Source: Botryllus schlosseri
Taxonomy: Eukaryota
Reading direction: 5' to 3'
DNA length: 64,000 bases
Assembly: GCA_051294905.1 (NCBI GenBank)
Contig: CM119371.1
Coordinates: 34,722,001 to 34,786,000, forward strand
The position numbers and the translations under genes are program-made. The notes beneath the pieces are model-generated. The model was not told the origin of the DNA and did not search any database. It saw nothing but the letters and a program-made list of their open reading frames with translations. Shown here in pieces: positions 2,486 through 58,643 of the stretch. The first letter of the stretch is position 1, and each line of letters opens with the position of its first letter.

Positions 2486-3451
<966 letters not shown>

Positions 3452-13257: not shown

Positions 13258-13780
13258 TGTTCAAAAATAACTTTTTTACGGATCCTGGGGATTCACTGAT
13301 TAAATTGTTAGGTTGCCTAAAAAAAGGCAGCACACCAAATTTGGCTCAATACCAACCAGCCGAAGCCGCGGAAGAGCCGATTGAAATTTTCAAATTTACT
13401 TTATAAATTATTAAATTTTTTTAACAAATTTTACGGTCAACCCCACGAAATTGTTAAGTCGCCCAAAAGAACGGTGCATACCGATTTTTGCGCGCTTCCA
13501 ACCAGTAGAAGCGAAGTTATCGCAGTTGAAAGTTTTGAATTCGCAAATATAGCATCGATGGCGGGTAGCCTACTGTAATCCCAGAACTGTTGATGAATAA
13601 CTCAAATAGCTTCGCTTCTACGGGTTGGAATTACGTCGAATTTCTTTCGCATCGTTTTTGTAGACAACTCGACAAATTCATGGGGTGAACAGTAAAATTT
13701 GAAAAATAAAACTCATTTTTTTTTGAAAAAATTCAAAAATTTCCGTTGGCTCTGCCGTGGCTTCGGCTGGTTGGAATAGT
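13258..13780. mobile_element. Diverged, truncated member of the palindromic hAT MITE family seen at 41835-42444
   Basis: Starts tgttcaaaaataactttttt...gattaaattgttaggttgcct; internal inverted symmetry (ccagccgaagccgcgg / ccgtggcttcggctgg). Confidence 0.65.
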
Positions 13781-15295
13781 GTCAAAAACAGCCAAAAAGA
13801 GCAACGAAAGTATAATTCTCATTGACAAATTAACTCTCAGTGTACTCGATAAGATGATCTCTCACTATTTGACTCGACTCATTAGAATTAATACTCGATT
13901 CAGATTTGACTACTCAAATCAGTTTGCCCAGCGCTACTTTAGGATTCTACATGGATATTTCCACATTTTGGTACAATTTTGGGTTCATAACACAAGGTTA
14001 CCCTCTCCGCCAATAGCGTTCAACATTATTCAATATTGTCCAACACTACGGAAACAGCACTCATTTCAAAAGCTACTGACGGATACCATTCGTTTTTTTA
14101 TCATAATATAATGTCCATAACAAGAATAGGGATCGATAAGCATTGTATTTCATTCTACGAGGTTTTTTTCCATGGAATGCTATCTCACCCACATTTCGGC
14201 CGTTACGGTCAATGTTACAGCATGTGATATGGCGAGTTTTCAAGAAAGGTGCTATTTTTATCATTCACACGGCATTCGGTGGTTAATCGCGTTAATACAT
14301 CTGAGCGGTCTCAAGAATAAGTATCTGTAAATATATTGCATAGCAGTTATCCTCGCTTGATACCATACGTCACAGGCCGACGTCAGAAAAATCCGAGTGG
14401 ATATCAGTTTCCGTGGCACTCTGTGCTGTTAATTAAGACGTCAGGACATGGCAGGATTAATGCCTGGAAATTAACTACCGTACTCATCGCCATATTCAGT
14501 ACACCAAGTAAAGTCTGGCACCAAAGCTGGTAGTATTATAAGGAATCATTTGAACATCACATGAGCATGATGCATATGGCCGCATTAGTCAAAGTGTCTC
14601 AGATGACAACAATTTGACGAATGAAATTCATATCAGGACTGAAACAGACACATATTACATTTTCATCACCATTTCAACAAATGCTCATAACTCATTAACC
14701 CCGTTAATACTATACATTAAAGTTATGCTTCAGTAATTTTGATAATTTCCTTCAATAGAGGCCAGATAAAGTACCGTAACATTTATGGACAACAATTTGT
14801 CATAGACTAATGCTTACGCAGCTCCGGGATTCATGCTTATAGTTGGGAAAAAAAACTGCAGTGTTCATAGCGATAAAATATCTTGACCAAGCCCCTGTGA
14901 TAGGAAATTGCTGATATTCCAATCGAATGGGCTCAAGCATCACAGGCAAACCATGATTGGGGTTTCTAAGCGCACGAGAGACACAAATTCGGATACCAAT
15001 CGACTGGCGTTCGCATTCTCCAGAGCACAATAAGTTAAAACAAAAACAGGACATAAAACAATAATATCCACCCACCACGGAACGATGGCGAATGAAAGCA
15101 GTCAAACACGTATGAAACAACGAAAATTCCAGTATTCTCATTGCACTTGGCAACATGGAACAGTTTCCCATCAAATGCGTGGGGTCTAGAGTAGAAATGG
15201 TCACAAATCAAATGGACAGTTGGACACACCGCACATGTTCTACGAAACTATTTTATGCACACGCAGCCACGTTCAATTACCCACAAAGGCGATAT

Positions 15296-17803: not shown

Positions 17804-19919
17804 TTTGGGTCTCCAGTCATTACGGTAACTTGACAAGGTAAAGTCTACCCGGGTGTCTTGATAATCCAAGCATTCGAATCGAAATCGGGTGATAAACTAA
17901 GTCAGGCTACTGGCTATACCAAATATCTGTAACAAAGAAAGTATGTTTGTTTCTGTACGCAATTATGGTCAAAGTTGGTTAGTTGCAAACCCTTCACTAG
18001 AGGACACATAAAATCACTAAACTGATGAACTTGTGAAATATTGCTCAATGATGCGATAAATACAATCATAGAAGGCTATTATGTGCCTTCAATATTAACG
18101 GACTAACGGTTGCAAAACCGCAATATAATACTAATTACCGGTGATATATTCATATCGAAATGAGCTAGTCACTACCAGCCACCACTGCTCAACCGAAACT
18201 ATTCAGGACTATTTCAATATGAATATAGTATTAAACTGTATATGCCTATTGTCTGATCTGATTATATTAATAAGTAATAATAATATTTCGCACAAACTTT
18301 TCAATTCAATTAAAACCGATTGTTCTGTACACGAGCTGCAGTTGACTTGATGGTTTCGCAACGTTTCACCAAGCCATGTTATCATTTCTCTTTTCATCAA
18401 TCCTAGGATTTATTATAATAACAAAATCACCACAACATTAAAATACAAGTTGCCCCTAGATTTTATCGTATCAATTCCGCCATAACATTAAAGATGCACT
18501 AGAGGTGAAATTATTTCTATACTTAACTAAAACCATAATATCCTTTCCTATAAATATATTACATTAGCGCCCTGTAATCAAATGCAATTATATCCATATA
18601 TTAGCCTCAACCATAACATCCTTTCCTATAAATACATTAGGTAAGCGGTAAGCACCCTGTAATCAAATGCGATCAAAGTACTCTAACTGGTTCACACAGG
18701 TTCACAATATTTAACCGTCAGTCGATAGAAGTTCTCCACGAAAATCTGCCTGCAATGCATAATATAGCGTAGATATCATTCCGCGATTATTGAATAGAGT
18801 AAATACTTTGGGTAAAATTAACTCAAATGTGTCATAGATATTGTTGATACAAAAAATATTGACAGCTTGTGAGGGACTAGAATAGGGCATATATTATACT
18901 ATTAGTTGGAATAGCACAGTGGGTGACATATCATGCAGTCATTGTGGTGTTCTAGTTGATAAGTTCAGTGCAAACCACAGCATAAGTGTGTGCTTTCGTA
19001 TGATCCAATTACAGTGGTAACGTAACTCATTACATATAGGCTGTAGCATGACATGTTCATGTTCATGCAGAGTACATTCCATCACGATTATCAGGTCTTA
19101 TCTCCTGACCACAAAAGAATGCACAGTTGCCGAACTGTGATCATTCAGTGCGCAATTTTTTGTTAAAATTAGCTGCTCTCTTCTGTCTACATAAGATCAC
19201 TGGTGCGATTCGGCAAGTTTGGAGCAGTTCTACAGAGCCTTCGCACAAAACTTCATGATAGCAGTGAGCTGGTTAGCATTAGGCTATTGTCAATGACTTT
19301 TTGCAACTGAACCAGGTGAAAAATATGACTATTAGACAGAACCTGCTGACGAAAAAGACTCCCACCACTGCCTAGTGCCTATAATGCATTTATCCCAATT
19401 CGCCAGTAAGTCAAATTAACCAGGTTTGCGTCTTTGTCAATCTTCTGCAATTAATGGCACACTGCACAGGAATAAGTATTTTTGATTTTGATACATGATA
19501 ATTTTGCTTTGTTTTTTCTTTTTCTAAAAATTCCACTGATCTGTTCAAGCGGCAGTGCGGAATCTGTGTGGTGCAAGGTGCAAACACACAGTAATCATCT
19601 AAAATTTCATGCAGTCATGCAGCTGATAGCCGGATTAAAAAACATTCACTTGGCCACCACCAATTTTATATAGGGAATATACATCTTTACTAATATTTAT
19701 TTTACATTGATTTCAAATTATCTCCGCTTACTGTAAATGCTATATTATCGTTGGCCTTTCTTCAGTTTTCCAATGAAATTGCGATACGCAAGGCCTCCCG
19801 AAGTTGCACTCTTATGACGCGAGGTGTCACTCGATACGGTTCTAACCATACTGCAAAATCGGACGATTTGTCACACACAGTAAAGGTGCCTTGATTCCAC
19901 CCTGGGCCTATGGAATCTA

Positions 19920-32811: not shown

Positions 32812-33756
32812 TTAGTGAACTAAATGCGAGCGCCTGTTTGCAGCAAGCTTCAGCACGGCATCAGTGTTCCACTTTTCGTGGGCTTTGCGCTGCGGGATAT
32901 CGATTCCGTAATACCAAAACAAGCACGCGAGCTGCTGGTGCCTTTGCTGTCGCTCTTCCAGTCCGTTTTTCAAAGATTTCATCAACTCCGAGCTTGGAAT
33001 CCAGTCAGCGTTGCTGTCTAGGACAGACCACACAGCTAACGGTTTCGGACGCATCCACTTCCCGCTACAATCATTCTGATTGAGCACACGGTTCTCTGGG
33101 AGACAAGAGGTTTCGGCTCTACTAAGTTTGATAGTTAAGCGACGCTGTTTAATTTCGTTTTTCAGCCAATCGAAACATTTCGTTTTCTGTCCGCCATTGA
33201 TATCTTCATTACCAACTCTTTCGAATATGAATTTCTCGTAGTACAACTCATCTACGTCCGGGCGTTCGGGCGCAACTATGTACACTGCATCCAAGCCCTT
33301 TTCGAGCCGCCTTTCATTCATTGCATAAATCACGGAATGAGTGCTTTCGATAGCATACTCCGCGTCAATCTTCAGATTAACCCCGAAATTCATTAATTCA
33401 GTAGCCGTGTATTTGTATATATGCAGTTTCCGGTACAGGATTTCATTCATTCTGAGAATCAGAGACTTGCAGGGAATCCAGTTACTGTCGCTTTCAATTC
33501 TAGCACGTATCGTACTGGTGGACGGATACATCCAGGTTCCTTCACATGTGTAATCATTGATTTCGCAACAGCACTTTCCTTTCACGAGCTTTCTGCTTTT
33601 GATGATTTTAAATTTGATTGTGACGTTTTCGTTGTCGATTTCCTCTCGCAGCCAATCAAACCAGTTGATTTTCTCTGTGTCGTTCTCGACTGATACCGGT
33701 CTTGATACGATGGAATCATAAGTAACGCAACTTTGCGGCCGTTCGTCACTAAGCAT
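32812..33756 (-). CDS. Uncharacterised 314-aa protein made of two tandem diverged ~155-aa domains
   Basis: ATG-started 945-nt ORF in AT-rich DNA; internal repeat conserved at protein level (FDWLxxEI...TIK...CxGxWMxP...SxxxWIP...G[VI][ND]...RR); acceptor-like ttttag 5 nt upstream of the ATG. Confidence 0.8.
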   Translation of the reverse strand: MLSDERPQSCVTYDSIVSRPVSVENDTEKINWFDWLREEIDNENVTIKFKIIKSRKLVKGKCCCEINDYTCEGTWMYPSTSTIRARIESDSNWIPCKSLILRMNEILYRKLHIYKYTATELMNFGVNLKIDAEYAIESTHSVIYAMNERRLEKGLDAVYIVAPERPDVDELYYEKFIFERVGNEDINGGQKTKCFDWLKNEIKQRRLTIKLSRAETSCLPENRVLNQNDCSGKWMRPKPLAVWSVLDSNADWIPSSELMKSLKNGLEERQQRHQQLACLFWYYGIDIPQRKAHEKWNTDAVLKLAANRRSHLVH

Positions 33757-35039
33757 CGTAACTAAAACATTGGTTTGTCATGAGCTATATACCTAAACAG
33801 TAGAGGAAAATCACTTTATTTTCCAAACTGGATCAAATACTTTCAAACCACTTCAAGTAGGTCGAGGATTAGCATACTTTTAGTCGAAAATGACTACTTT
33901 CAAAATTGCCTATATCTTCGAGACTAACGAAAAATAAGTGCAATCCTTGAAAATATCGTTGCTATTAAATCAAAGTACTGCAGCTTCTGTCCATTTTACA
34001 CATGTTGAGAAAACTAACTTTATGTAGAGTTCTCATTTTCTTTCGGCCATATATTGGCCACGATTAACTTTGAAACGATGTGATAAACATAAACATGGCC
34101 AAGATAAGACCGTAAACATGAAAATTTTACAGAAGCATGATTTTCTATAAGTTTGAAAAATGGAACTAAAATTTCTTAAAAAGGGACATAAGCCACTTTG
34201 ATTACCCCTCGACGATATATTCAGTTAGCGTGATGCAGGACGATTTCACTTAGACATTTGATGCAAACTTATCACGAAGGTATATACTCTCCACTTTTCG
34301 ACATCTGACTGTAAAATTTGAAAATCCTGCTTTTCGCGTCATAATATGTGATGAATTATTTCAATTTTGTGCTTTCGACGAGATCCCGCTAACATGTTGC
34401 TTATAGCCCGTGGCGAACTGAATTTCTTTTTATTTCTATACTCGGTATTGACTTCATTCCTTTCTGCGTGCACACTGTGGACATACGTGTAGCTGTTATG
34501 GTCCGCCCATAGATACTCTACGTTTATCAGTTACTGTCATACTTATTAAATAACATCTATCCGTGACTATGGCTATACCTTGTACGCATCACATTAATCT
34601 AACAAAAGGTATATTTTATTATCGTCAGGAATACATCGTTCAATCAAACATCTCGGTTACATACGTCTCTTAACTTCATTAGACTAAACATAAGCTTTTA
34701 CAAACGGGGGACTTTAAATCGGGCAGTAAGCTCAAGTGTCGAACCGCTATTGTGATAACAGTAATTCGAGATTGCAGGCGTGGTGATATAGGTCTTTTGT
34801 TTGATATGCTACTCGTACACCGATCATATTGCGCGCGTGAATGCGAAGACCTTATGACATCTAGTTCGATTTCAGTGCCTTATCCTTCATAATTATTGTC
34901 CAGTCTACCAGACCGTTTATTTTGTAAGTCACCACTTCCGTACATTGGTAATAATATTTTATCAATAATTTATTCGGATATTGGGATTCGAGTCAATTCG
35001 AATATCACTCAGTAAGTAACACTTGAGTATATATATACG

Positions 35040-38547: not shown

Positions 38548-39429
38548 CAGGGGCGGGCAGCTTCTCCAGTCGGTGGGCCGGATATAGGAAAATTATAAGT
38601 ACTTGGAGGGCCGGATTGCTGAATCGATACATCATTCGTCCATTTATTCACATACACAAGGAATAAATCGTATTTAATGAATGTATTTTAACGACAGCAA
38701 TGTCACATCACAGCTACTTCTCGTCGATAATGACGAAGACAATGTGGATTAGGGAGTAGCGTTGCCATACAGGCGCCACCATGTCTGGTTCTCTCTGATC
38801 AGTCGACACACGGTGCAATCCTTAAGTACGATTTCAAGGCGTTCGATAAGTCCAGTACCCCATATTTACAAAGATATCAATTCATTCGGGTTGAGTAGGT
38901 GACGAGATAGTGTCGTGTTCAACTGTGTGGCCTAATTACTCTCGATATTGAATTCATGCGACCTACGTCCTCGACAAAATTTGAATAGTTGCCCGCGACC
39001 CGTTTTGAGTTGGCAACCACTGACATAAGCGGTGTCTTACAAAAGCCTAGAAGTGTGCCGTGCTACATGTCGGCAGTTACGGAATCAAAATTAAGAAATA
39101 TCAGCCTGGCGTAAATGACCGTTGTAGTCGACAAACACCATGATTACCACAAACGAAATCGTTGAGTACATCGTAAATGCCGATAATGCAAGTCGTCTCG
39201 CTTCGACGAACTTTCGCGTAAGCTCCACTCTCGCACGCTGCGCATACTCGCATATAATAGGAATAACATACAGTCACTAAAATTAGACATAGTAAACAAG
39301 TAGTAGGGTATATCGGCAGACTGAGGCCACGGGCCACATTATCATGTAAGACGGAAAACAGTCCTAAGGCCGGACAAAATCTCTTCGCGGGCCGGATCCG
39401 TCCCGCGGGCAGTAGGTTGCCCGCCCCTG
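38548..39429. mobile_element. hAT (Charlie-like) MITE; diverged sister copy at ~41227-41790
   Basis: TIR CAGGGGCGGGCA / TGCCCGCCCCTG; perfect TSD tcctagcc. Confidence 0.9.
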
Positions 39430-39625
39430 TCCTAGCCTGATATGAAGGTGATGGGCACGCAGGCCGCATGCGGCCCGCAAGTTGATTTTCTTACGGATGG
39501 CAAACAATGCTGGCAGTTGTTAGGCTATAGCCAGTAGCCACTCATTCTGATTTCCAGTCGGGCTCTTATAATATTCATTGTCACCCTGCCGTTTTTCGCT
39601 AATGCTTGTTAACGTTATAACGCAG

Positions 39626-41178: not shown

Positions 41179-41834
41179 ATTGGCACTGCGTACAATGCAT
41201 TATTGTTTATATAGCATGTGTAGTGCGGGGGCGGGCAACTTCTCCAGTCGGCGGGCCGGATATAGGAAAATTATGTACGTGGCGGGTCGGATCGCCGAAT
41301 CGATACATTATTCGCCCATTTATCCACATATACAAAGAATAAATCGTATTTAATGAATGTATTTTAACGACAGTAATGTCATTTTAAAGCCATTTCTCGC
41401 CGATAATGACGAAGACAATGTGGATTTGAGAATAGCATTGTCATACAGGCGCCGCCACGTCTGCTTCTCTCTGATCAATCCTTAGTTAAGATTTCAAGGC
41501 GTTCGTTAAGCCCGGTAACCCATATTTACCAAGATATCATTTCATTAGGGTTGAGTACATCGTAAATGCCGATATTGTAGTCTTCTCGCTTCGACGAACT
41601 TACGCGTAAGCTCCACTCTCGTACGCAGCGCACACACGCATTGGCCTAATAACATACAATCACTAGAATTTGACGTTTAAGCAAGTAGTGGTGAATCTCG
41701 GCAGACTGGGGTCGCGGGCCACATCATGTAAGACGGGAAACTGTAAGCCGGATAAAATCCCGTCACGGGTCAGATCCGCGGGTCCCTCCATGGTGTAGTG
41801 TACAGACTGCAGAATGTGCTCGTACAATGTACAA

Positions 41835-42444
41835 TAGGGCTGTTCAAAAATAACTTTTTTTCCTGAATCTTGCTGGTTACTTGATTAAATCGTTAGGTTG
41901 CCTTAAAAAACGACGCACACCAAATTTGAATTCATTCCGACAAATATTCGCGGTTTACGTAGAGTTTGAAAATTTTGGATTTGCCCATAAACGCAAAAAA
42001 AAAAATTTCGCAAATTTTTTTGCCAACCCCATGAAATTGTTGGGCTGTCTTCAAAAACTATGCAAAACAAATTTGACTCAATTCCAAGCCGTAGAAGCGG
42101 AGTTTTTCGGTGATAATTCTTGGATTATCCACCAATCAAGGATAATCCCAGAATTATCGAATAAAAACTGAAATAACTCCGCTTCTACGGCTTGGAATTG
42201 AGTCAAATTTGTTTTGCATAATTTTTGAAGACAGCCCAACAATTTCATGGGGTTGGCAGAAAAATTTGAAAAAAAAAATTTTTTGCGTTTTTGGGCAAAT
42301 CCAAAATTTTCAAACTCTACGTAACCCGCGAATATTTGTCGGAATGAATTCAAATTTGGTATGCGTCGTTTTTTAAGGCAACCTAACGATTTAATCAAGT
42401 AACCAGCAAGATTCAGGAAAAAAAGTTATTTTTGAACAGCCCTA
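41835..42444. mobile_element. 610-bp almost fully palindromic hAT MITE
   Basis: TAGGGCTGTTCAAAAATAAC...GTTATTTTTGAACAGCCCTA; the two halves are near-identical reverse complements (mirrored ORFs 41881+ and 42398-); perfect TSD atgtacaa. Confidence 0.93.
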
Positions 42445-42501
42445 ATGTACAATGAATGCTGTCAAAGTAACAATATTGTATGAGAATATAATGCTGTATA
42501 T

Positions 42502-45150: not shown

Positions 45151-45475
45151 CTTTAAAGGATGCAACTAATGCCAAACGGACATTGTACTCTTAAAAATAC
45201 AAATTGAGAGAATTAAGTTATTTTGCCTAAAAACAGTTCAACTAGCAGTGAAAGTAATCGTCATACATAACCCCTTGAGTGCGTGGTGCAAGTAGTCAAA
45301 ATAAATTTCAATACGACGACAAACGGCACGATGGCCAAACTATCACTGACGGCCGCTAGCTGGCACCATAGGCTAAATTGGCTCGCTCTGCCAAATGTAC
45401 CGAAACCCAAGTATTTTAGATCGTACAATTGATGAGTACTACATCTTATTGAATGCTTGTGTGCTGTGTTTTCAG

Positions 45476-45542
45476 GATCAAGATATACCCTGGATCGTGG
45501 CTAGAGTGGAGCAGGTTGAATCCGAGAAATGTCATCGAATAG
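45476..45542 (+). CDS. Rhodanese terminal coding exon
   Basis: gtgttttcag|G in phase 2 gives (P)IKIYPGSWLEWSRLNPRNVIE*, with the rhodanese C-terminal signature YxGSWxEW. Confidence 0.92.
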
Positions 45543-46079
45543 GCATAGCATTACTATCCAGTTATCAGCTGTACCGAAATGAAGTAATGCGAAATTGAAG
45601 TCATACCAGATCGAAATATACGTATGATGTACAAGCGTTCGGTCAAACGCATAAAATATTATTGCACCGCAAGTATGGAGGAGTAAGGTTAATTTAATAC
45701 CAGTTACAATCGATTTTGAGCTCGGATGATCAGCTACAAGATTCTCACCTCTGTTTACGAAGCCGCCAGTATGTTAGCACATCCGGTCGCCCAGCCGTGA
45801 AGTCACGTGTTTCACACCTATCCGCATATTATTTGTCTATAAGCGAACACTCGTATAATATCGAGCACCCCGTCTTCTTTGTAACAAACGGTAAAATATC
45901 TCAAAGGCTTGTCCTCAGCCGAAGACCTGACACTGACACACAGAATCCAGATTGAAAAAACACTGTTATACTCTGTTAGGTATATCTTCATTTCTGACAA
46001 TGACGAGGCTCACGAAAGTTGCTACGAAGGGTGCAATGCGACCACCATGGTTAACATAATATCAACTTATTTCTGGAAT

Positions 46080-46335
46080 TTATTGCTCATATTCATAAGT
46101 AGCAGTCACGTCGTTCGAATTTTCCACTCTACATGAAGGCACTAAATAATGAGTATAACTTTCAGCGGAACCAACAGCGTGATAGCAGTTGTCGTTTGGG
46201 GATACATGGAGGCCTGAGTCGGCATGCTTGGCTCCGTCCTCTGACACGCGATCAGTTATATGGTAGGCTGCGATATCACTATATTTCACCTGGTCGAAAT
46301 CCTGTTGCGGTCCTTTCGAATTTTTCATTCGCAAT
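46080..46335 (-). CDS. CUB-like receptor exon 5 (cytoplasmic tail with tyrosine motifs, stop)
   Basis: ttctctatacag|A in phase 2; (R)LRMKNSKGPQQDFDQVKYSDIAAY...NCYHAV...THYLVP...ATYEYEQ*; AATAAA overlaps the stop. Confidence 0.75.
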
Positions 46336-46437
46336 CTGTATAGAGAAATTCATACGCGAAAGCGTTAATCGAATCCGAGTTCGAATTCAGAATTTCAAGC
46401 CGAATATTTCGGCTAATACAAATGACTGTATATAGAT

Positions 46438-47019
46438 CACGGTTCTAACCAAGTAACAAGGTTCTGAGTCACAAGTCAATCTCACTTTTATAGTTTTGAC
46501 TCGAGTCAAGTCGAGTCATTATTAATTCGTCGCCGAGTCAAGTCCGAGTCGAAGTCAGTGGTTAGAGGGTCAATACCGAGTCATAGTCTTGATACTCGAG
46601 TCCGAGTCCAAGTCTCTGGGTTCACTGTTCAGTTTTGAGTTCAATCCCTTTCAACCCACGTTTTTCAACTCTGATCGGGTGGTATAGAATGACTCGCATT
46701 TATAATATCGTAATTTTCCTCAGCCCGGAAAGTTTTTGGCCCTATTTTCCAAGCAGCACAATTGATAGACGAAATACCAATGATGTGGTAACTTTACTAT
46801 TCTTCGAAGTTACAATGAAATGCCTGTCTTGGCCGTCCTAATCTCGAGTCATATGATTTGGTTCGAGTCATGCACAATGACTCGAGTACAAGTCGAGTCA
46901 ATACACAATTTGACTCGAGTCGAGTCATTTCACGCTTTTGAAAAAATTACTCGAGTCAAGTCTAGTCACCAAAAAATCGTTACTCTAGTCGAGTAATGAC
47001 TCGAGTCATTACAACACTG
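46438..47019. mobile_element. hAT MITE, GACTCGAGTC family
   Basis: Collinear with 27613-28163 in inverted orientation; flanks atatagat / gcatagat. Confidence 0.75.
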
Positions 47020-47884
47020 GCATAGATAAAATTTTCGACGGTATGTTCAGTTGTTTTCTTTGTTCAGGTTCCGTGGTATAGGGATCATTTCACTTTGCTC
47101 TAGTGACAATTTCTCTCAAAAACGTGATACAAACTCATCCAAAAACCACATTATAATTTTCAAAATCCTATGTATGAAAAGTGAGTAGATTTGCCTCAAA
47201 AACTTTCAAGTAATCTACGAATCCTAAAGCATTCCGCTCTAGTACAGTATTACAAGTAGGCCAGAGGCGAGCAACTTCTTCAGCCTGCGGGCGGAATATG
47301 AGAAAAATGAAGTAGCCTACTTGGCGGGCCGGATTCCTGAATCGAGACATTAATCGCGTATTTATCCACCTATATAAGAAATAAATCATGATTAATGTAA
47401 ATTTTAAGCGTGGGGCATAGGGATCGAAAACAGTAGTCAATAAATTCATTAACGTAATGTACTGTGGTCGATCAAAGTTGTCAACAAGTCAACTCTGGCT
47501 GCATGTTGGACATACAACCCTTAGTAACGACTGCACGTGAACATAAGTTTTATTGGAACGCTGCTTTGTCTCGTTAATTTGGACGTTCGAAAAGGTTTGC
47601 TCGCGAAGGTATGTAGCCTAGATGCGGGCCGCGGGTAACATTATCATGTAAGACCGGAAGCTGTCCAGGGGCCGCTCATAATCTCGTCGCGGGACGGATT
47701 CGGCCCGCGGGCCGTATGTTGCCCGCCCTGAAGCACAGGCGAAACCAATACTTGAATATTTCTTAACAGTAGAGTACTCGATTACTGACAACCTCTGAAC
47801 TTATGTCGAAAACTTACAATGTCCACTTGTCTCATAGTCGGTGTCATGGCGAGTTTTGACGGTCAGTAGCGGTAGTTTACTCAC

Positions 47885-48065
47885 CGCTTGCACAGTATGG
47901 CTACGGTAGCTGAACATCCCAGCAGCGACATCCCGCAAAGAGCTAATAATCCGACCATAATCCAAGTTAACGGTGTCTCAATGCTCGTGGACTGCTGTGA
48001 TTCGGTGGACGAGATTTGTGGAACGGTTGTTTGTTGGTAATTTGATGTCGAGACTTGCACTGGTT
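47885..48065 (-). CDS. CUB-like receptor exon 4 (Ser/Thr-rich stalk and transmembrane helix)
   Basis: cacttttatag|AA...CG|gtgagt (phase 1-2); EPVQVSTSNYQQTTVPQISSTESQQSTSIETPLTWIMVGLLALCGMSLLGCSATVAILCKR. Confidence 0.85.
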
Positions 48066-49985
48066 CTATAAAAGTGATTAAACTGAATCATGATAGATAA
48101 AGCCAGTGGATATAGTGGCGCATATCAGGCGTAAAGGTTCTTTTTTGCGTAACGGATAGAGATAAGTTAATGCTATAAACCACATCAAGATATAACATAT
48201 TGATATATCACGAAAATACTACACATCTGCATACATTCTACAAACGTGCAAATGAACACCAGTATAAATAGGTTTTATAACGTTCTTCCCCTCGATCTAA
48301 ATCTAGATTCAATAATGGTATGCGGCAAGTCCTTCGGCGTTCAACAAGTTGTCATTACGAACTAAGGCAAGAGCAAATTGTGATTAATCTCATTTCTAAC
48401 TGGAGTCGACCCTTACGACTGCTGCGGCCATTTCGCGACCCAGCTACCACCTTATGATTGCTTGTTCCGTAGCGATCCTCGTTAAGTAATGTCAGTTTGA
48501 CAATCAAATCGATATATTTGCTGTTACTAATTTTGGCTATTTCCAAGCGATATCAGTATAATATACCATATGCATTTTATAAATATAACATAGCACCCCC
48601 TCTTTTATAACAATAACCTTTCGTGGGCCGTTATAGAGACTGTGCTAAGAGATTAATCAGATTCCAAACATTAGATTTAAAATTCATTTATCCAGTATAC
48701 TAAACGGGGGAAACCTCATTCCATATTTCCATACAATTGGCGGATCCCACAAGCTGTGGATTTGATAGCTATAGTTCATTGGTTTTTTCCACGTTCTTCC
48801 AACGGTCGTTATAACCAAAACTAAAATCGATTGATTCGCTTATCAATATTCATTCCATACCCCCACTCAACATTGGAGGCCTGCTGCAATGCTGCATACA
48901 TTTCCAGCGGGTTCCAGGAAAAGTTGGCAGGGAAGAGGCAGCCAAAATTGTCATTGATGCTACTTATGTAGAAGTGGAAGTGATTGGATTACGAGGCGAA
49001 CAGGGCAGTTCTAGAAATCCTTGGAGGCGAAGTGTAAATTTATACTTAATCACTGTGTACTGGGTATACCGCTGCTATATCGGTCTTCAGGACACCCATA
49101 AACTTCTTCAAAGTATTAGCAGGAAGCGAGATTAAATGAAACGCAACTTTGAAGTGGTTGAACGAGACACGAAGCGCCGCAGACTTTTATGAGTCATTCA
49201 CTACTGAAAAACTACAAACTCTGCGTGATACATCTCCACAACTAACGCAAAAAGTGCCAGTGTCACGTATCAGCGCGATTCCAAAATTATATAACATTAA
49301 CGTCACACGCGTCTGCACATCTGCATGTTGGAATGACGCTATCCCTCAGTAGATGACGCAAACATGTTCTGTAACTATGAATAGCGAGCAAGTGTAGTCT
49401 AACAACCAAGGTTGTAATGACTCGACTCATGTCTCAAATCGGCGCGCAATTTTTTGTTGACTCGAATTGACTCCAGACTTTTTTAAAAATGAAAAATGAC
49501 TCGACTCGACTTGTACTCGAGTCATTGCGCACGACTCGACGAAGTCGTATGACTTAACACATTCTATATGAATTACTCAAGTCTCGTATATCAGGAGCGG
49601 TACTAGAAAAATAGGCCCAGGTCTTTTATCTGTTTGAATAAACATGTTTGGAGTGAGAAAAATTAGTATATTTTGAATTCGAGGTGTTCGTAATCACCCA
49701 AGAGTTTCACAGAAGTGCGTTGAACGTGACTGGATCTCGATAATGAACAGTAAACACTATGTCTCGACTTGACCCGAGTCAAAACTATAAAAGTCAAATT
49801 GACTTGTGACTAGGAACCTTTTGACTTCGTTGCAACCCTGCTAAAACACACTCAATTTATCAATAATCAATCATCGTCAGAATCTATTTTTATCTCAACA
49901 AGACACGCATAAGGCACAATGCGATACACAAGACACAATGCTTATATAATAGCCAAACCAACTTGACTATAAGTACTTTACTTAC

Positions 49986-50210
49986 CGATGTTACACGGAA
50001 AAAGCTTGTAGTCAAACGAAAACGACATATTTCCTTCGCTTTTTACTTGGTACCGAACATTCTTTATCGTCGTAACATTATTGTTTATCCAAACGAAATC
50101 CGTGCAGTTATCACTCTGAATGGCTTCCGGGACCCGTCTTTTATCGCACGAAGAGGAATGAGAATAGACAATGCAAAAACCGATTGGCATTTGGCAGAAC
50201 CCTGGCATGT
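49986..50210 (-). CDS. CUB-like receptor exon 3 (second half of ectodomain)
   Basis: tatctcacag|AC...G|gtaagt (phase 1-1); DMPGFCQMPIGFCIVYSHSSSCDK...NCTDFVW...GNMSFSFDYKLFPCNI. Confidence 0.8.
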
Positions 50211-51225
50211 CTGTGAGATACCAGGGTATGAGTCATTAAATACTGCTGTGCGGCATGAGGTTAACTATAAAGCTCTGTACCCAGAACATACAAGCAACCA
50301 TTTTCAAGATTCAAAATATTGAATGACATTTGCAGAAGTCGTTGGCAACAACGCACGTCTACTATTTTGGATTAGCCTATACCCAAGCGGAGTTTGAGTA
50401 GTTGAACTACTTACTCAAGAGCTTGCTCAAGATTTTACACCTCTTCCAGTTGTACTCAAACAGTTTGTTCAGGCAAGACTACTCAGTTTCTTTTTTACAA
50501 TTTGACTGTTGAAAGGTAGAAATTATGTTTCGGGGTAAGTTTGCTTCACTTATATGATCAAAATTGTCATACGAACCCCGTGAAATAAACCTTGCATCAC
50601 GATAACTGAATATACCATCAGAAATTTACCATTATGTTCTGTTACTATTTATTTTTAGTGAGTCGCGAAGATACATCCGGTCATTTATTAGTCGACCTCC
50701 GATTAATTGCCAAAAGTCTGCCATCCATTCACCAAATCCACTCATTCCTATTTTCATATCGTTTTTACGTAGTTTTTGCATGTCTAGAAAATCGTTGCTT
50801 CTATAATAGTAATTGAATATAAATTTACGGACCTACTTCGAGTTTTTAATAATATTATTGTTGTCACAACACAGTGGCCCTTATCGCCTTTTCAGGCTAT
50901 GTCCACCACGACACGAATTTATGGTAATGTTCATTTCTTTGACTTCGTAATCTTTTGGGGACCACTTTCCATTCTTGCTCCCAGTCAATTTCAGTCCCTT
51001 TCGCTCCCATGCGTTCCCATCGTGGTCTCTGCTGCCGACATGTAGCACAGCTGACTTTCAGTCTGGGATTTTCAATGCACTATCGTTGGTGTCGTGACTG
51101 CACTATTTGACCAACTGCGCCACTCGGTTCCTTACCACTTGTAGTTCCATTTACAAATATCCATTTCAGTAGCAATATTAACTTCTTTGATCACATCTAG
51201 ATATTTGTAATCTCATCAAACCAAC

Positions 51226-51453
51226 CTGAAAATCTTAGTAATCCGGCGCATAAGCCACTTTCATACAACGATAGCGATGCGAGCTTGATGATTATCACAT
51301 TTCTTTGTGGTGCGGAGACTGGGAATGACCATTTGCACACTGCTGACACCGTTTCGTTACCTTCGTAACTGACAGTTCCGGAAGACTTATCGAGGATTTG
51401 AGAAGCCGGTGCGTATGCGGGACACAGTGCAGCGCCGAGCTTGCTGCTTGCTC
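51226..51453 (-). CDS. CUB-like receptor exon 2 (first half of CUB-like domain)
   Basis: tattttgcag|GA...G|gttggt (phase 1-1); LCPAY...ILDKSSGTVSY...VCKWSFPV...VIIIKLASLSL...LCAGLLRFS resembles the CUB pattern C...lxxxsGxi...CxWxi...ixlxf...C...l. Confidence 0.8.
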
Positions 51454-51586
51454 CTGCAAAATACGTGGGTGTCAAATCATTAGTCGCAAAGGCTGGAGAA
51501 TCATGATCAGTGTAGCATCAACCCATCCAATGATCCCGGAGTGTGCTGATACGAAGAGGTGGCCAGTAACGAAGTGCTTCTACATT

Positions 51587-51658
51587 TCCGCAGTAGTCAG
51601 ATAGTATTGTGTATAGTAGCACTCCGCAGTAGTCAGATAGTATTGTGTATAGTAGCAC
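51587..51658. repeat. Perfect 36-bp direct tandem duplication
   Basis: tccgcagtagtcagatagtattgtgtatagtagcac twice in a row. Confidence 0.95.
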
Positions 51659-51999
51659 TATTACTCAAAAGTGGTTTTGTTTACTTTACAGACTACGAGG
51701 GATATAGAATGACTCGCATTCCCAATACAGTCATTTTTATCAGTTTTAACCATTGCCGACCCTATCAGACGAGCTACCAGTAATGGTAACGTAACTATTA
51801 CTCGAAGTTACAATGAAATATCTTAGCCGTCCTAGTCTCGAGTCATACGACTTGTTTCGAGTCATGCAGAATGACTCGCGTACAAGTCGGGTTAATACAA
51901 AAATTGACTCGACTCGAGTCATTTTACGAATTTGAAAAAATGACTCGAGTCAAGTCGAGTCACCAAAATCTGGTTTGCATCCTGTGAACATCGTCTTAC

Positions 52000-52033
52000 C
52001 TAGTAAGATTGCTGCAAGTACACATAGCTGCAT
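52000..52033 (-). CDS. CUB-like receptor exon 1 (signal peptide)
   Basis: aacATG CAG CTA TGT GTA CTT GCA GCA ATC TTA CTA G|gtaag = MQLCVLAAILL; phase 1 joins exon 2 to give MQLCVLAAILLGASSKLGAA. Confidence 0.75.
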
Positions 52034-53479
52034 GTTTGCGGCGACAGCCCATGGAAATATACGGAATAGAGTCCGACTATAAACTCGATGCCTATTGACA
52101 ACGTATAGCCTGTCTGACAAGTCAATTTAAGAGAATCGGTAATCCACGAAGTCTAAAAGATAAATACAGTTAGTCAAAGTAGTCAGCGTTGATACTCTAA
52201 TGCAGTGCTCTTCAACCGGGGTTGTCGTACACCCCAGGGTGTACCAGAATTTGCAAAGGGTGTACCACTCGGATGGGGTGTACAGGGGTGTACCAGATCC
52301 GAATTACAATGAGCCGATGGCTAGCTATCACAAAGGCAGGTTTATGGGCCAGTACAGGTTGACGCACAGGTTAATGAGCAGTATGGTACGATGTTATCTC
52401 AAGTGTAATACCATAGTGTCCTATATGGTGTCGACACAAGCAAATCGCACGGTTCAATGAAATTGCATCACGTCACAGTTTCCATTTGGCTACAGGCAAT
52501 TTGACGGTGATTTTTGACCGGCTTGCCGAGCATTAAATTTGATGAATCGGGTATCAATCGAAAGCTGACTCTGCACTGATTACGAAAATATAAATTTTAT
52601 TCCGCTCGCGGCCCTGGAACCCCCACAATCAGCCCCCAATTATTCATTGTCGAGTAGATTGGCAGTGTGACGCAACAATGCTGTCTAGCGAAACGAGAGA
52701 CTAGCTCAAGAGCAAGGATGCGGCCGAGCGGCGAGAGTGGGATCAGCTGACGTCGCGGCAATAGCGATGTGCAAACGCGCCACAGAGAAACGCTGCGCTG
52801 TTGATACTTTTTCTATGCGTTTCGGTACAAGCGAGCACACACCAGCCTTTCCTTGACTTGTAAGGGTAGAACTGGGTCCACAGAATGTATTACGGCCCTA
52901 CCAATTTTCGCGCAATATCCTTCAGCTGATAAAGATATGTCATTGGATATTGGACATTGGATATGTCAGATTATTATGATATCGATTGCCTTAGCCCGCT
53001 TGTTGCGTAGGGCTCCAGAGACACGTCGCGCTGTTGATGGCGGGTGTCGATACTTTCTATAGTCGCTTGTATGGTTAAGTGTGAGCAAGGAGCATTGAGC
53101 ATGAGCATACATTACAAGCTTTTATTTGATCCGTATGGGTAGGACTTGGTCCGCGAATGCAGCAGGTAAAATGTTGATTGTTGAATAAAGTTTAACAGCA
53201 GGAGTGTCGAATTAAATTGGTATCGCTGTCCGGATTCAATCCGTTACTAGAAAGCTTGCGGGCCATACCTGCCAAATGATTCCAAAATGTTACCACCAAA
53301 TTCATACCTTTGTTTTTCACTGGAATATATCTGATATCACTATAAACATTGACGTTGGAATTTGGTTTAGCATTTTTCAATCACCAAATAGTTTTTTTGA
53401 ATGCCGGGGACCTTTTGCGTCAAAAGTAATACAGTGGTATCACAGATATTTGAAATATATTCATTCTGTAGCCTGTATA

Positions 53480-56359
53480 GGGTAGAGTGGGGCAAAACGC
53501 CTATCGTAAGGGAGAAACGCCATAAAATCCTCCGTGCTATTCGAGTTGGTCTAAATTTCATAGTATCAACGCGAGATGTCGTACCTTATCCAATATGAAT
53601 GTATGGAAAGCTTATGTATCGTTTATCAGCAGTAAAATCATGATTCATCCATGTTCGTCAAAATGCCGTTTTGCCCCATGGGTGGGGCAAAACGCACACG
53701 AAGGCGTTTTGCCCTACTAGGTCTTACAATTTACCCACTGATACTCTGTTAAGGATTTCTTTTTCATTCGTATACAATTATACATGCTTACTAGCCCACT
53801 ATAAATTGAATCCTGTACAAATGTTGCAACCCAAACATGTAATGAACAAAAAACAAGCTAATGAACGAAAATCTAAAATCAGATGTGCCAAGGCAAATAT
53901 TGTGTTAAAGTCAGTCAGAAAGGTCGTCGTCCTCAGAATCACAATTTTGACAAATGAAATGGCGATCTCCAAGCGTACATTCTTGATGTGCCCATAAATG
54001 GCAAATCAGACACTGAATCCATTTTTCCCCGGGCCTACTATTACGGAATGGCTCAACGCAAATCAAGCAAGGCCATTCTTCGTCATCTCTTTTGTTTTTG
54101 GGTGGACATTTATCCTTAGGCACCTTCTCCTTTTTCGATCTCTTTGTAACCGGCTTCGGTGATTTAATTTTTTTTTGCAGAGCGTTTTTATAAGGTGATG
54201 ACGTAAGCACTTCTGAGTTTTCTGCTTTCCTGGATCTTTTTCGTTTTGTGGCTGATTTAACCGGCGAACATAACTCGTCTATAGCTTCCCTTGCCTCTGA
54301 ATGTTTTGAAGTCGAAGCCATGGTAGTTGATTTAACTACCTCGCAATCCGTGTTATTGGTGGTTCCTCCCACTTCAACTATACTTGGGTCGGTAGTGGAG
54401 GAATTATCTTGGCAGTTGTCAGCATTTCCGGCATGTGGGTCTGGCTCATCGGTCATTTCGGACGCGATGAAGTCTTCTTCCGAGAATATATCTTTATTGA
54501 ATGGCCAAAGTCCACAGGCCCTGAAGCCATTGACGGATTTCTCTACCGTAGCACATCTGTTGTAAGCAACAGCAAAAATCTCGGCCATATCGAAAAATTG
54601 GACCCTCTTTCCTGGATTTGTTACCATCCAATTGTCCACCGATGAATTATAACTAGATTTTAAAGATTTAAAAAACGTTTTATCGAGTGGTTGCATTTTG
54701 TGGGTGCAGTGAGGTGGTAACGTCAAAAGTTCGATTCCGTTCGAACGGGCATAGTCGATTGCAGCAAGGGTTTTATGGCTATGATGACCATCCAAGATGA
54801 TTAAATGTTTTTCATCAACTGTGGGTTTTGCAATTGAAACGAAATGTTTTAGCCAAACTAAGAAACTTCCTTCATCGGTCCAGCCGTTTGCAGTGCAGTG
54901 GCCAATTGATCCAATGGGTGCATTTCTCATTAGCCCGTCCACCATTCGTTTTCTTGGAAATATAATCATAGGGGGTATGTATGCTCCCGCCGCATTCGTT
55001 GCGCAAATTATCGTGACCGTTTTCCCTCTTTCCCCGCTCGTCATTTTCCCAACTTCTCGTGCACCTTTCGTCGCAATGATGTTGTCAGGCTTTTGGACAT
55101 TGGTAATTCCGGTTTCGTCCATATTCCAAATACGAGTTGGCACGTAACAGTGTGAGTTTAAAACGCCCCGATAAGCCGTGTAAAACTTTTCCACTTGAGG
55201 CTTATTAAATCCCACTGCCCGTGCTATACTGGTAGCTTCCGGCTTTCGAATTGATAATTCTTGATGACGTGATAAGAAACCACGTAGCCAGTCTTTGCCA
55301 GCCATTTTAACGTCGTCATTAAACCGATGTTTCATTCCCATCTTTGTGGCAAAGTCATAAGCCAGACGGCGTACGTCCTTCGTAGTTAAGCCAAATAAGG
55401 CCTTTTCCATGTCCTTAATCTTCGATACTATTTCACTTTCATATTGAAGATTTATGTCTGGTTTAAACCTCCCCAATGAAATAGAACCCGGGTTCGATAC
55501 TTCTTTATTCGTATGTCGACGGAGCGTTCTAGGAGGTATCCCGTAATATATTGCCGTTGTCTTCAACGCCGCGCCTCCTTGCACGGCGTCCATAGCTTTG
55601 CGCAAGTTTTCTTCAGAGTACGACGCCCTGGATGTTTTCCTTTTATAAGTCCTCACCATGTTTTTGTTCTGCAGGTAAATAATAATTGTAGTGTTTTGAT
55701 TAGACTGATTAGTGAACACATTTAGTTGATTCTTGATCAAACTCCCCAGAGTTCCTGTTCGAGTTTCACACTCATCTCGCGTCTTTGCATGCCATTTAAA
55801 AAAATAGTGATTAATTTACAGACCATAACCGTTTAAAAAAAATCTACCAGTACTGTATTGGATATCATTGGAAATTCCTTATCAAACAACATGATTTTGA
55901 TCTCCTGGGTAATGATACGAATGCGAATCACTTCAAGGGGTAAAACGCCCACTAGCGGCGTTTTACCCCGCGTATAGGGTGGGCGTTTTAGCCACGAGGC
56001 CGCCATTACTTTCGAAACACTAACAAGGTGGTTATTTTGTGTATCTGACGATGAAATTACACTAAAATCACATCGAACATAGTAGGATCCTAAATAAGAT
56101 GAGAAAGATTCATTCGGCGACCTCAATAGTTACGTTTCATCCAGTTATATTACGGTTATTTTTGTAAGAAACAAGTCAAAAAGTAATATATTATCGTAAA
56201 ACTCACCAAGTCCTCTTTCAACTTCAGAAATTAAGGTGACAGCTCCGTCTGACCATTAGGCATACTTTAGGCTATTGTGACTCATTCAACAATCACTTTG
56301 TTTGGTAATAGCGATGGTGGGCGTCTTACCTCACAGGGGCGTTTTACCCCACTCTACCC
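53480..56359 (-). mobile_element. Full-length pogo/Fot-like DNA transposon
   Basis: 22-bp TIR GGGTAGAGTGGGG(C/T)AAAACGCC; TA TSD on both sides; inner copies of the AAAACGCC motif; uninterrupted transposase ORF. Confidence 0.95.
53911..55659 (-). CDS. pogo/Fot-like DD35D transposase with HTH_psq/CENP-B-type N-terminus and C-terminal PHD finger, 582 aa from MVRTYKRK
   Basis: WNMDETG, LIILDGHHSH, then 35 residues to the D of QPLD; AGKDWLRGFLSRH helix; C4HC3 CLIC...CLICHLWAHQEC...CQNC; acceptor ctgcag 9 nt upstream of the ATG. Confidence 0.95.
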   Translation of the reverse strand: MVRTYKRKTSRASYSEENLRKAMDAVQGGAALKTTAIYYGIPPRTLRRHTNKEVSNPGSISLGRFKPDINLQYESEIVSKIKDMEKALFGLTTKDVRRLAYDFATKMGMKHRFNDDVKMAGKDWLRGFLSRHQELSIRKPEATSIARAVGFNKPQVEKFYTAYRGVLNSHCYVPTRIWNMDETGITNVQKPDNIIATKGAREVGKMTSGERGKTVTIICATNAAGAYIPPMIIFPRKRMVDGLMRNAPIGSIGHCTANGWTDEGSFLVWLKHFVSIAKPTVDEKHLIILDGHHSHKTLAAIDYARSNGIELLTLPPHCTHKMQPLDKTFFKSLKSSYNSSVDNWMVTNPGKRVQFFDMAEIFAVAYNRCATVEKSVNGFRACGLWPFNKDIFSEEDFIASEMTDEPDPHAGNADNCQDNSSTTDPSIVEVGGTTNNTDCEVVKSTTMASTSKHSEAREAIDELCSPVKSATKRKRSRKAENSEVLTSSPYKNALQKKIKSPKPVTKRSKKEKVPKDKCPPKNKRDDEEWPCLICVEPFRNSRPGEKWIQCLICHLWAHQECTLGDRHFICQNCDSEDDDLSD

Positions 56360-58643
56360 TATATATTCCTAATGTAACTTACGTAAAACGGATTTGCAGT
56401 ATTTTTTTCGCATCTGTGAATAACTGAATGTCCATTGTCCATTCGGCCCAACAGAGTTTGCACTTTCTCGCCTTCTCGAAATTTGGCAAGGTCACCGACG
56501 TGGTGCTTATGGGGACTAGAGTGAAAACTCAACACTGTAGTTGTATTACTACAATATGATATATTTACATTATCTAAATTTGCTGTCTTGAGTGAATCTT
56601 ATTACTTGAAAGTACATTTTTCTTACTAGAAATATCTCTAACAGCTGAAGGATTGCGCGAAAATTGGTAGGGACCAAATACATTCCGTGGACCCAGTTCT
56701 ACCATTACAAGTGAAGGAAAGGCTGGTGTGTGCTCGCTTTTAGCGAAGCGCATAGAAAAAGTATCAACAGCGCCACGCATCTCTGGAGCCCTACGCAACA
56801 AGCGGGCTAAGGCAATCGATATCATAATAATCTGGCATGTCCAATGTAGACTACTTAGACGTAGCCTACATATCTCTATCAGCTAAAGGATATTGCGCGA
56901 AAATTGGTAGGGCCCTAATACATTCCGTGGACCCAGTTCTACCCTTACAAGTCAAGGAAAGGCTGGTGTGTGCTCGCTTGTACCGAAACGCATAGAAAAA
57001 GTATCAACAGCGCAGCGTTTCTCTGTGGCGCGTTTGCACATCGCTATTGCCGCGACGTCAGCTGATCCCACTCTCGCCGCTCGGCCGCATCCTTGCTCTT
57101 GAGCTAGTCTCTCGTTTCGCTAGACAGCATTGTTGCGTCACACTGCCAATCTACTCGACAATGAATAATTTGGGGCAGATTGTGGGGGTTCCATGGCCAT
57201 GAGTGGAATAAAATTTATATTTTCGCAAGCTGTACAGCGTCAGCTTTCGATTGATACCCGATTCATCAAATTTAATGCTCGGCAAGTCGGTCAAAAATCA
57301 CCGTCAAATTGCCTGTAGCCAAATGGAAACTGTGACGTGATACAATTTCATTGAACCGTGCGATTTGCTTGTGTCGACACCAGATGTCATAAGCAAATAT
57401 TTCTCCTATTCATTTAGCCGTCGGCAATAGACCAATGGTTCCGTTTGGTGTTGGAAAGTATGCAGTTAACATATATGTGTTCAGCTAGTGATTTTAGTCT
57501 TTTAGATCTTAGTGATTTTTGAAGGAACCGCCGCGATAGCTCAGACTTCTTGAATCTGTACTTCCTATCCGACGTTAATAAATACCGCAATACACATAAA
57601 TGAAGTGACGTAGCCAGCCAGGGTCGAAACAGCTTCCATGTTGAAATCGAAACCCTTTTGTTTTAAAATGCCGATTTTATGTCCAATATTTCGCCATACA
57701 TTTGCAATTTAGTATTTTGTTATTAGTGCTGCAAATTAGCGACAATAGACTGTGTATAGCGGCATACGATCTAAGGTTACTGACATCTCTTGCAGCCCAA
57801 GTGCTACTATCGACTGTATGTGGTGTGGGGCAGGCCTGATACGCCGTACGCTACATGGTGCGCCTGCTATCATCGCTGATCTGAATTACCGCTTCTGCAG
57901 TAGTAACTTTACTTACTCTCTCCCCAATACTGTTACATTTAGGTTGATTATCGTTCGTAATGTCATGCTGTTTTTGGGCTGACAAGAAACAAATTCCAAT
58001 TTGCGTGGCGGGCGGCTTAACTGGCTGCGAATAGACTCTGTGACTACAGATAACTAACCTACGGTCCGTAGGTAGTTATCTATGCTGTGACCAAATACTA
58101 TTTTATTCAAATCCAAATTTTTTGACGACAATAACTCCGCTTCTACTGGTTGGAATTGAATCAAATTTGAAGAACATCATTTTTATAGACAACCTAATAC
58201 TTTCATGGGTGAACAGAAAAATTTCAAATTTTTCGTTATTCATTTTATATAATAAATAGAAACTTTCTTCTCCCGTAGCAATGCGGCTACTGGTTGGAAT
58301 TGAGCCAAATTTGGTGTGTAGGCTTAAGTTAGGTAACCTAACAATTTTATCAAGTAGCCAGATTCGAGAAAAAAAGTCATTTTTGAAGACCCCTAATGTA
58401 CAGGGTTGTACGAGTTTTGAGCAATCGTTAAAAGGGTGTACGACGTCGAAAAAGGTTGAAGAGCACTGCTCTAATGTAAGCGGCATATACTGTCAAGACG
58501 TCTCAATACTGCTCCAAATGGCAGTAGAAAATGGAAGACCAGAAAAGCACTCAAGCAAAAGTAGTTTATAAAAGGTAAACTTAGTCGAGGTAGTGTATAC
58601 TTTTAGCAGTTAATACTTAATAACCACTGGCTACATTCTAAAT

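Follow-up and report, generated by a model that had tools for sequence, protein, structure and literature searches.

Does the minus strand between positions 46080 and 52033 of a 64,000-nucleotide stretch of the Botryllus schlosseri genome (GCA_051294905.1, contig CM119371.1, positions 34,722,001 to 34,786,000; hereafter the window) encode a surface receptor and, if so, of which kind? A preliminary description of this DNA, made from its letters, had proposed a five-exon gene for a receptor with a signal peptide, a CUB-like domain, a mucin-like stalk, a membrane helix and a tail with a motif like the tyrosine-based inhibitory one of immunoreceptors (ITIM). The gene is real, expressed and spliced, and its product is predicted to be a type I membrane glycoprotein. 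Tentatively, and with less than even confidence, we read this product as a surface receptor with a CUB-type ectodomain, whose tail tyrosines would serve as sites for SH2 proteins, an SHP-type phosphatase being the likeliest partner of the motif VKYSDI.

Exon chain and transcripts

Direct reading of the sequence gave five minus-strand exons, whose introns all carry GT donors and AG acceptors in phases 1, 1, 1 and 2 (the exon 1 donor reads AG/GTAAGA) and whose spliced coding sequence comprises 924 nucleotides (nt) for 307 amino acids (aa) with a single terminal stop. The features are the following:

52000–52033, minus strand: exon 1, with the start codon and the predicted signal peptide's hydrophobic core (aa 1–11), placed from the sequence and shown by none of the listed RNA pieces
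51226–51453, minus strand: exon 2, end of the signal peptide and N-terminal CUB-like half (Cys22, Cys51-x-Trp, Cys80, sequon NET44), based on contig X2/14, X12 depth, ESM Atlas and glocal profile
49986–50210, minus strand: exon 3, which encodes the ectodomain's C-terminal half (Cys93, 100, 109, 123, 160; three sequons), joined to exon 2 in X2/14, fold unsupported when taken alone
47968–48065, minus strand: first part of exon 4, Ser/Thr/Gln/Pro-rich stalk (aa 163–195), contig X2/12 breaking at 48066
47885–47967, minus strand: second part of exon 4, predicted membrane helix and then a basic stop-transfer stretch, contig X1/4 breaking at 47885
46080–46335, minus strand: exon 5, 85-aa cytoplasmic tail with seven Tyr, and stop codon; contigs X1/2 and X2/9 break at 46335 and 46337, X12 depth ~12
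46272–46289, minus strand: VKYSDI, ITIM-like or YxxPhi motif (aa 239–244), Tyr241 lying 20 residues from the membrane
46079–46084, minus strand: candidate polyadenylation signal AATAAA, which shares letters with the stop codon, from the sequence and the X12 depth profile

The structure drawn beforehand proved exact to the base in its exon ends, phases, lengths, Cys, sequons and motif position. Of the two candidate first exons with a signal-peptide-like product in the 12.5 kb upstream, exon 1 is the better one, and the CUB-like domain is flanked by phase-1 introns, as is usual at both borders of shuffled extracellular modules. A further ATG, out of frame and situated 19 nt upstream of the start (52052 onward, minus strand), opens a 39-codon frame which overlaps the start codon in the spliced message and could damp translation, if it is part of the mRNA.

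Four of the 24 listed sequencing runs were compared with positions 45200–52420; all of them are RNA or presumed RNA and none is DNA (for the contig runs X1 and X2 the RNA origin is presumed, X12 consists of raw, unstranded RNA reads). In contig X2/14 (620 nt) 49988–50210 runs straight into 51226–51456 (record letters 281 to 282), intron 2 thus being removed exactly. Contigs X1/2, X2/9, X1/4 and X2/12 stop at 46335, 46337, 47885 and 48066, that is, 0–2 nt from the ends of exons 4 and 5, and carry 10–51 further letters past the break; over exons 2 to 5 as a whole, the contigs break no more than 0–3 nt from the exon ends. In run X12 the rescaled depth on exons 2 to 5 was about 4, 7, 10 and 12, with zero depth in the unique intron bins 48092–49296 and 50261–50501; no depth is left below 45923, and the values of the bins would suit a 3′ end at ~46000–46065. 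Altogether, three of the four runs lend RNA support; run X16 showed zero depth in repeat-free exon bins, and expression consequently depends on the sample. The RNA check of the four junctions, which had been proposed for this gene, was thus answered in part: junction 2 was seen joined and breaks fall at the ends of exons 4 and 5, whereas junctions 1, 3 and 4 were not among the joints listed, which repeats dominate, and exon 1 is shown by no listed RNA piece in the four runs. X1 also contains unspliced pieces.

Two short elements, one intronic at ~50990–51131 and one downstream at 45476–45611, display very high RNA depth (~1000 X12 reads at 51040–51068), the reads originating mostly from copies elsewhere. 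The former looks like a short interspersed element, in which ARAGORN found no tRNA.

Predicted architecture of the protein

Hydropathy analysis revealed a hydrophobic stretch at the N-terminus and a single segment of the length of a membrane helix (~aa 197–221; 19-residue maximum 2.14), which is followed by the basic flank KRLRMK, in support of the type I topology that had been anticipated. The predicted membrane segment contains three Cys and no charged residue. Adaptor-coupled activating receptors usually carry a charged residue in this segment, and the uncharged helix therefore argues against coupling to an activating adaptor. The stalk holds 13 Ser/Thr in the 35 aa from 161 to 195, so that a Ser/Thr-rich linker stands, but the term mucin-like is generous for it. 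The ectodomain exhibits eight Cys (22, 51, 80, 93, 100, 109, 123 and 160) and four sequons (NET44, NCT122, NVT132, NMS148), Cys4 being located in the signal peptide and Cys206, 213 and 221 in the membrane segment.

With respect to the fold, 24 of 30 ESM Atlas matches of exon 2 fall in the CUB set (recognition 2791), the top scores being 0.96 (cluster 17% CUB, 189/256 features shared) and 0.94 (98% CUB, 178/256). Furthermore, exon 2 was compared with the N-terminal half of CUB in an end-to-end (glocal) alignment test, which was devised after a local hidden Markov model had failed and for which we chose the gap costs; a z of 3.7 was obtained, with 3 of 1000 shuffles as good. When the test is applied to the whole domain, 11 of 1000 shuffles reach its score, and even the reversed domain lies above the shuffle mean, so that the support from this test is weak. 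The pattern that characterises the first half of a CUB, with Cys1, G-x-I/V, Cys2-x-Trp, L-x-F/L, Glu and Cys3, is present in exon 2, and for the C-terminal half two registers fit by eye, PEAIQS...DFVW, which hhalign-stage alignments preferred, or YQVKSEG...FSFDY. AlphaFold models of single exons were unusable (predicted local distance difference test 42.9 and 36.9), and Foldseek returned no match for them at E ≤ 0.001, a result meaningless at such low model confidence. A two-chain prediction from the exon-2 and exon-3 peptides, single-exon peptides only, scored 0.12 against a mark of 0.34, which speaks neither for nor against the proposed domain.

Calcium-binding CUBs (PMC10850435, PMC10214685) share with this domain the Cys-x28-Cys-x-Trp start, alternating hydrophobic strands and, in Glu76, the first acidic ligand position; here, however, Gly takes the place of the Asp that follows the third Cys, the last Asp is lost in either register, and ~30 extra residues and four extra Cys are present. 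From the signature Tyr-Glu-Asp-Asp only Glu76 is kept, YD after Cys3 reading AG in a weak alignment, and the acidic triad is incomplete in both C-terminal registers. The calcium site is probably missing, so that binding would be calcium-independent. Spermadhesins likewise consist of a single CUB, but are secreted. In a different setting, a secreted-looking protein with a CUB domain (PF00431, E 1e-15) was noticed on the viral contig IMGVR_UViG_3300025770_000870 (242 kb; L005 92–832), the closest relatives of which among the sequences gathered are Bacteroidota genomes.

The cytoplasmic tail holds seven Tyr in 85 aa (p 0.014–0.03 against an assumed background of 3–3.5%). VKYSDI is present in a single copy and matches [ILVS]xYxx[ILV], and YHAV matches the core-1 motif of the Botryllus FcoR receptors, for which the ITIM has been defined as I/L/VxYxxI/L/V (PMC12582321), a form that VKYSDI fits as well. 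VKYSDI resembles the listed ITIMs of NKG2A (VIYSDL) and TACTILE (IKYTCI; PMC7226588), and the Botryllus vasculature expresses homologues of Src, SYK, SHP-1 and SHIP (PMC12582321).

The inhibitory reading and its alternatives

If the protein is an inhibitory receptor, a protein or a glycan would be the partner that its single, likely CUB-type domain recognises without calcium, and binding would lead to receptor clustering. A Src-family kinase would phosphorylate Tyr241 and the neighbouring tail tyrosines, and these phospho-tyrosines would dock SH2 proteins, an SHP-type phosphatase at VKYSDI being the best single guess; its recruitment would damp an activating signal. The whole sequence of events, from ligand binding through clustering, Tyr241 phosphorylation and phosphatase recruitment to damping, is borrowed from known receptor biology. 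Inhibitory signalling is plausible, and by its motif the protein would at most work like an ITIM receptor.

Several results weigh against this reading, some of them in the ectodomain. CUB domains hold up to four Cys in two disulfides, and the span from Cys22 to Cys160, with 139 aa and eight Cys, lies beyond their typical length and Cys number. A CUB domain typically comprises ~110 residues (PMC10850435, PMC10214685), which the ectodomain exceeds by ~30. For the extra Cys-rich insert that had been suggested, with four additional Cys, no single position follows, as the extra residues could be internal, with YQVKSEG and FSFDY forming the final pair of strands, or partly terminal, if PEAIQS-DFVW is canonical. 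Pfam gave no CUB match at E ≤ 1 for exon 2 or exon 3 queried separately, and no Ig (immunoglobulin) or Sushi match either; a PDB sequence search gave no CUB match for these two exons. With a local profile of 78 prokaryote and virus CUB domains (7 of 7 checked pass PF00431; animal CUBs are not among them) HMMER scored the spliced domain at −0.7 bits, as high as 190 of 1000 shuffles, and hhalign reported a probability of 0.1–0.2%. In the glocal test 3 of 244 window decoys were above exon 2, and 273 of 1000 shuffles were as good as exon 3 against the CUB C-terminal half; the Atlas returned no usable match for exon 3. As Atlas and glocal test agree on exon 2 and exon 3 gives no signal, the first half of the ectodomain is probably CUB-derived and the second half unproven, and the CUB-like domain of the preliminary description can be retained for its N-terminal half but not for its C-terminal half.

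The tail and the locus add further points. VKYSDI departs from the stricter [ILV]xYxx[LV], and among 20,000 tail shuffles a share of 0.21 matches [ILVS]xYxx[ILV], 0.12 matches [ILV]xYxx[ILV] and 0.25 matches when Thr is allowed in the consensus (0.029 for a pattern refined after VKYSDI had been seen). A benchmark on human proteins, with a cut-off of 0.25, comprised 51 known inhibitory receptors, of which 41 lie below 0.05 and 10 between 5 and ~25% (PMC11460946). Since 12–25% of the shuffles match here, as against 41 of 51 receptors under 5%, the tail is at the weak edge of known inhibitory receptors; what had been described as an ITIM-like tail keeps its consensus match and its further tyrosines, but its statistical weight is low. 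Within the 64-kb window tblastn found no paralogue, which answers for the window a check that had been asked for, and neither a gene cluster nor a paired partner is present. The searches with single exons yielded no homologue on which the conservation of VKYSDI could be assessed.

Variation between individuals was counted as differences between the contigs and the window. Exons 2 and 3 differ in 14 of 454 letters (3.1%), exon 4 in 4/148 and 5/159, exon 5 in 7/182 and 4/158, and non-coding pieces in 0–8 per 180–223 letters; the genome-wide heterozygosity of B. schlosseri is 3.63% (PMC12448946). The variability of the ectodomain does not exceed that of the tail and is close to the genome-wide level, so that the polymorphism check proposed earlier reveals no excess in the outer domain, a further count against the receptor reading. 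The suggested role in immunity, allorecognition or gamete interaction finds no tie in these data, the gene standing alone in the window. Among the eight exon differences listed six change the amino acid (neutral share 0.76), and all eight are located in the stalk, at the membrane edge or in the tail, none of them inside VKYSDI. A second X2 contig of exon 4 (47908–48031) differs in 14 of 124 letters, compared with 5 of 159 in the other, and may be a paralogue or a distant allele.

Among the alternatives, a close rival, though in itself somewhat unlikely, is that YSDI acts as a YxxPhi endocytosis or sorting signal without any inhibitory function, the protein serving in adhesion, as cargo or as a co-receptor. 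YSDI fits YxxPhi at 20 residues from the membrane, about the usual site of sorting signals, and the ITIM match is near chance in the shuffles; YxxPhi, however, arises in 0.72 of the tail shuffles and carries even less weight than the ITIM, and sorting does not need the excess of tail Tyr. CUB proteins do act in endocytosis, co-reception and fertilisation (PMC10214685). The seven tail Tyr, several of them after acidic residues, would also suit a CDCP1/DCBLD-like Src substrate, whose tail would dock kinases or adaptors instead of phosphatases and steer adhesion, migration or budding. Vertebrate CUB-membrane proteins such as CDCP1 and DCBLD1/2 signal in this manner as Src substrates, but the present tail has no YxxP or YEEI motif, and we regard this explanation as unlikely, although it too is a close rival.

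The fold itself may have been misread: the CUB profile searches (Pfam, HMMER, hhalign) were all negative, exon 3 is without signal, and 139 aa with eight Cys exceed ~110 aa, as would suit another beta-rich fold (e.g. divergent Ig-like, as in Fester/FcoR) or a hybrid with a CUB-like first half. Two separate methods nevertheless place exon 2 with CUB, no Ig family is named among the Atlas rows shown for it, and a non-CUB ectodomain is, in our estimate, distinctly unlikely. Finally, the gene could be decaying or weakly constrained, or a processed copy at another site could give rise to the spliced signal, and the gene would then lack a present function. The neutral share of non-synonymous differences, a DNA transposon 390 base pairs (bp) upstream and the presence of intronless genes in a genome that was compared with RNA or presumed RNA runs would be in line with this idea; against it stand an open frame that spans the five exons, the integrity of every splice site, RNA in three of four runs and the confinement of the listed differences to stalk, membrane edge and tail, which render it highly improbable.

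Known systems, genomic setting and significance

Botryllus FcoR proteins resemble the receptor proposed here as lineage-restricted type I membrane proteins with ITIM and YxxI/L/V core-1 motifs in the tail (PMC12582321, PMC12065747), but they comprise 520–610 aa with an Ig-Sushi-Ig-Ig ectodomain, compared with 307 aa and one 139-aa CUB-like domain, and are clustered, and paired head-to-head with multi-pass Fester genes, whereas this gene is without partner or paralogue in the window. In the supplement of the FcoR paper (PMC12582321) three peptides of this gene were absent, except for YSDI inside the N-terminus of FcoR4. FcoR membership was rejected on account of size, domains, clustering and peptide absence. 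The vertebrate ITIM receptors NKG2A, LAIR-1, CD33/Siglec and Ly49 have Ig or C-type lectin ectodomains. They share the single pass, the uncharged membrane segment and a VxYSx[LI]-type motif (PMC7226588), but in the majority of them the ITIM is present at least twice or has strong statistical support (PMC11460946). No sequence similarity to CDCP1, DCBLD1/2, LRP12/MIG-13 or NETO was found. These proteins combine extracellular CUB, one membrane helix and a tyrosine-bearing tail, with several CUBs or LCCL, FA58C or LDLa domains that Pfam detects; we know of none described as an ITIM receptor.

Relatives were searched with single exons of 67–84 aa, by which distant ones can be missed. For exon 3, the one candidate among longer proteins was not confirmed and none of 1.84 billion protein representatives matched at E ≤ 0.001; for the tail, none of 48 candidates among longer proteins was retained at E ≤ 10; exon 2, which was not run in these two protein collections, had no hit in 600 prokaryote and 44 viral DNA stretches. 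Four metagenome matches of exon 3 (18–37 residues, 27–30 bits) were rejected as chance. These results agree with the earlier view of a lineage-specific gene that is not a recognised one. Furthermore, the literature searched, which left most subscription papers, bioRxiv supplements and annotation tables outside, contained no paper joining CUB domain, ITIM, ascidian and transmembrane; PMC13635237 holds no passage relevant to such a receptor, and HrSMLP1 of Halocynthia (~74 kDa, fibronectin type III-like; PMC6916515) is unrelated. Within that literature the orphan receptor-like gene has a layout not previously found, and it may exist as an unnamed model in published annotation.

The window has a GC content of 40.8%, compared with 40.5% for B. 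schlosseri (N50 30 Mb; PMC12448946) and >40% for other styelids (PMC13746493). An exon scan of the 64 kb returned only the CUB-pattern and membrane exons of this gene and one candidate in a repeat at 39248–39436, the neighbours being housekeeping genes and a DDE transposon. This DNA transposon (52423–57385), which we take to be Pogo-like, is apparently intact, with inverted repeats of ~620 bp (52423–53038 and 56763–57385, 94% identical) and a minus-strand open frame of 634 codons (53911–55815) for DDE_1 together with a Cys/His finger at the C-terminus; lying upstream of the receptor gene, it stops 390 bp short of the start codon and may have cut or altered the promoter. A KSR-family kinase (836 aa, 15296–17896, minus strand) and RNF121 (313 aa, 2486–3451, minus strand) are intronless among spliced neighbours, RNF121 being 81% and 79% identical to the top two proteins, 76% to Styela clava and 68–73% to Phallusia/Ciona species, as suits a stolidobranch ascidian. 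On the same strand, 850 bp downstream of RNF121, a LisH-bearing first exon (1419–1631; Pfam LisH_TPL) resembles that of SMU1. For a 321-codon open frame at 32812–33777 (minus strand), part of which seems to be duplicated (two FDWL blocks), Pfam gave no match, and a 630-bp near-palindrome (41825–42454, 91% self-complementary) belongs to a repeat family also present at 13258–13786 and 58095–58414.

Botryllus-type ascidians are the main invertebrate-chordate model for natural killer-like 'missing self' decisions, the ITIM receptors of the cited papers being the Ig-based FcoR. It is a long shot that colonial ascidians use the CUB fold for recognition, as a third type of domain next to Ig and C-type lectin, in paired immune receptors with tyrosine motifs; this gene would then be an inhibitory (ITIM) member bearing a disulfide-stapled variable insert, and putative YEEIP-tailed CUB-membrane genes would be its activating counterparts. 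If VKYSDI is only a sorting signal, the gene would be one more orphan membrane protein of a genome seemingly rich in them. A CUB receptor wired to an ITIM, if true, would mean that further outer folds are coupled to modules of inhibitory signalling. For recognition by blood cells, gametes or buds it would be a candidate that is small and open to testing.

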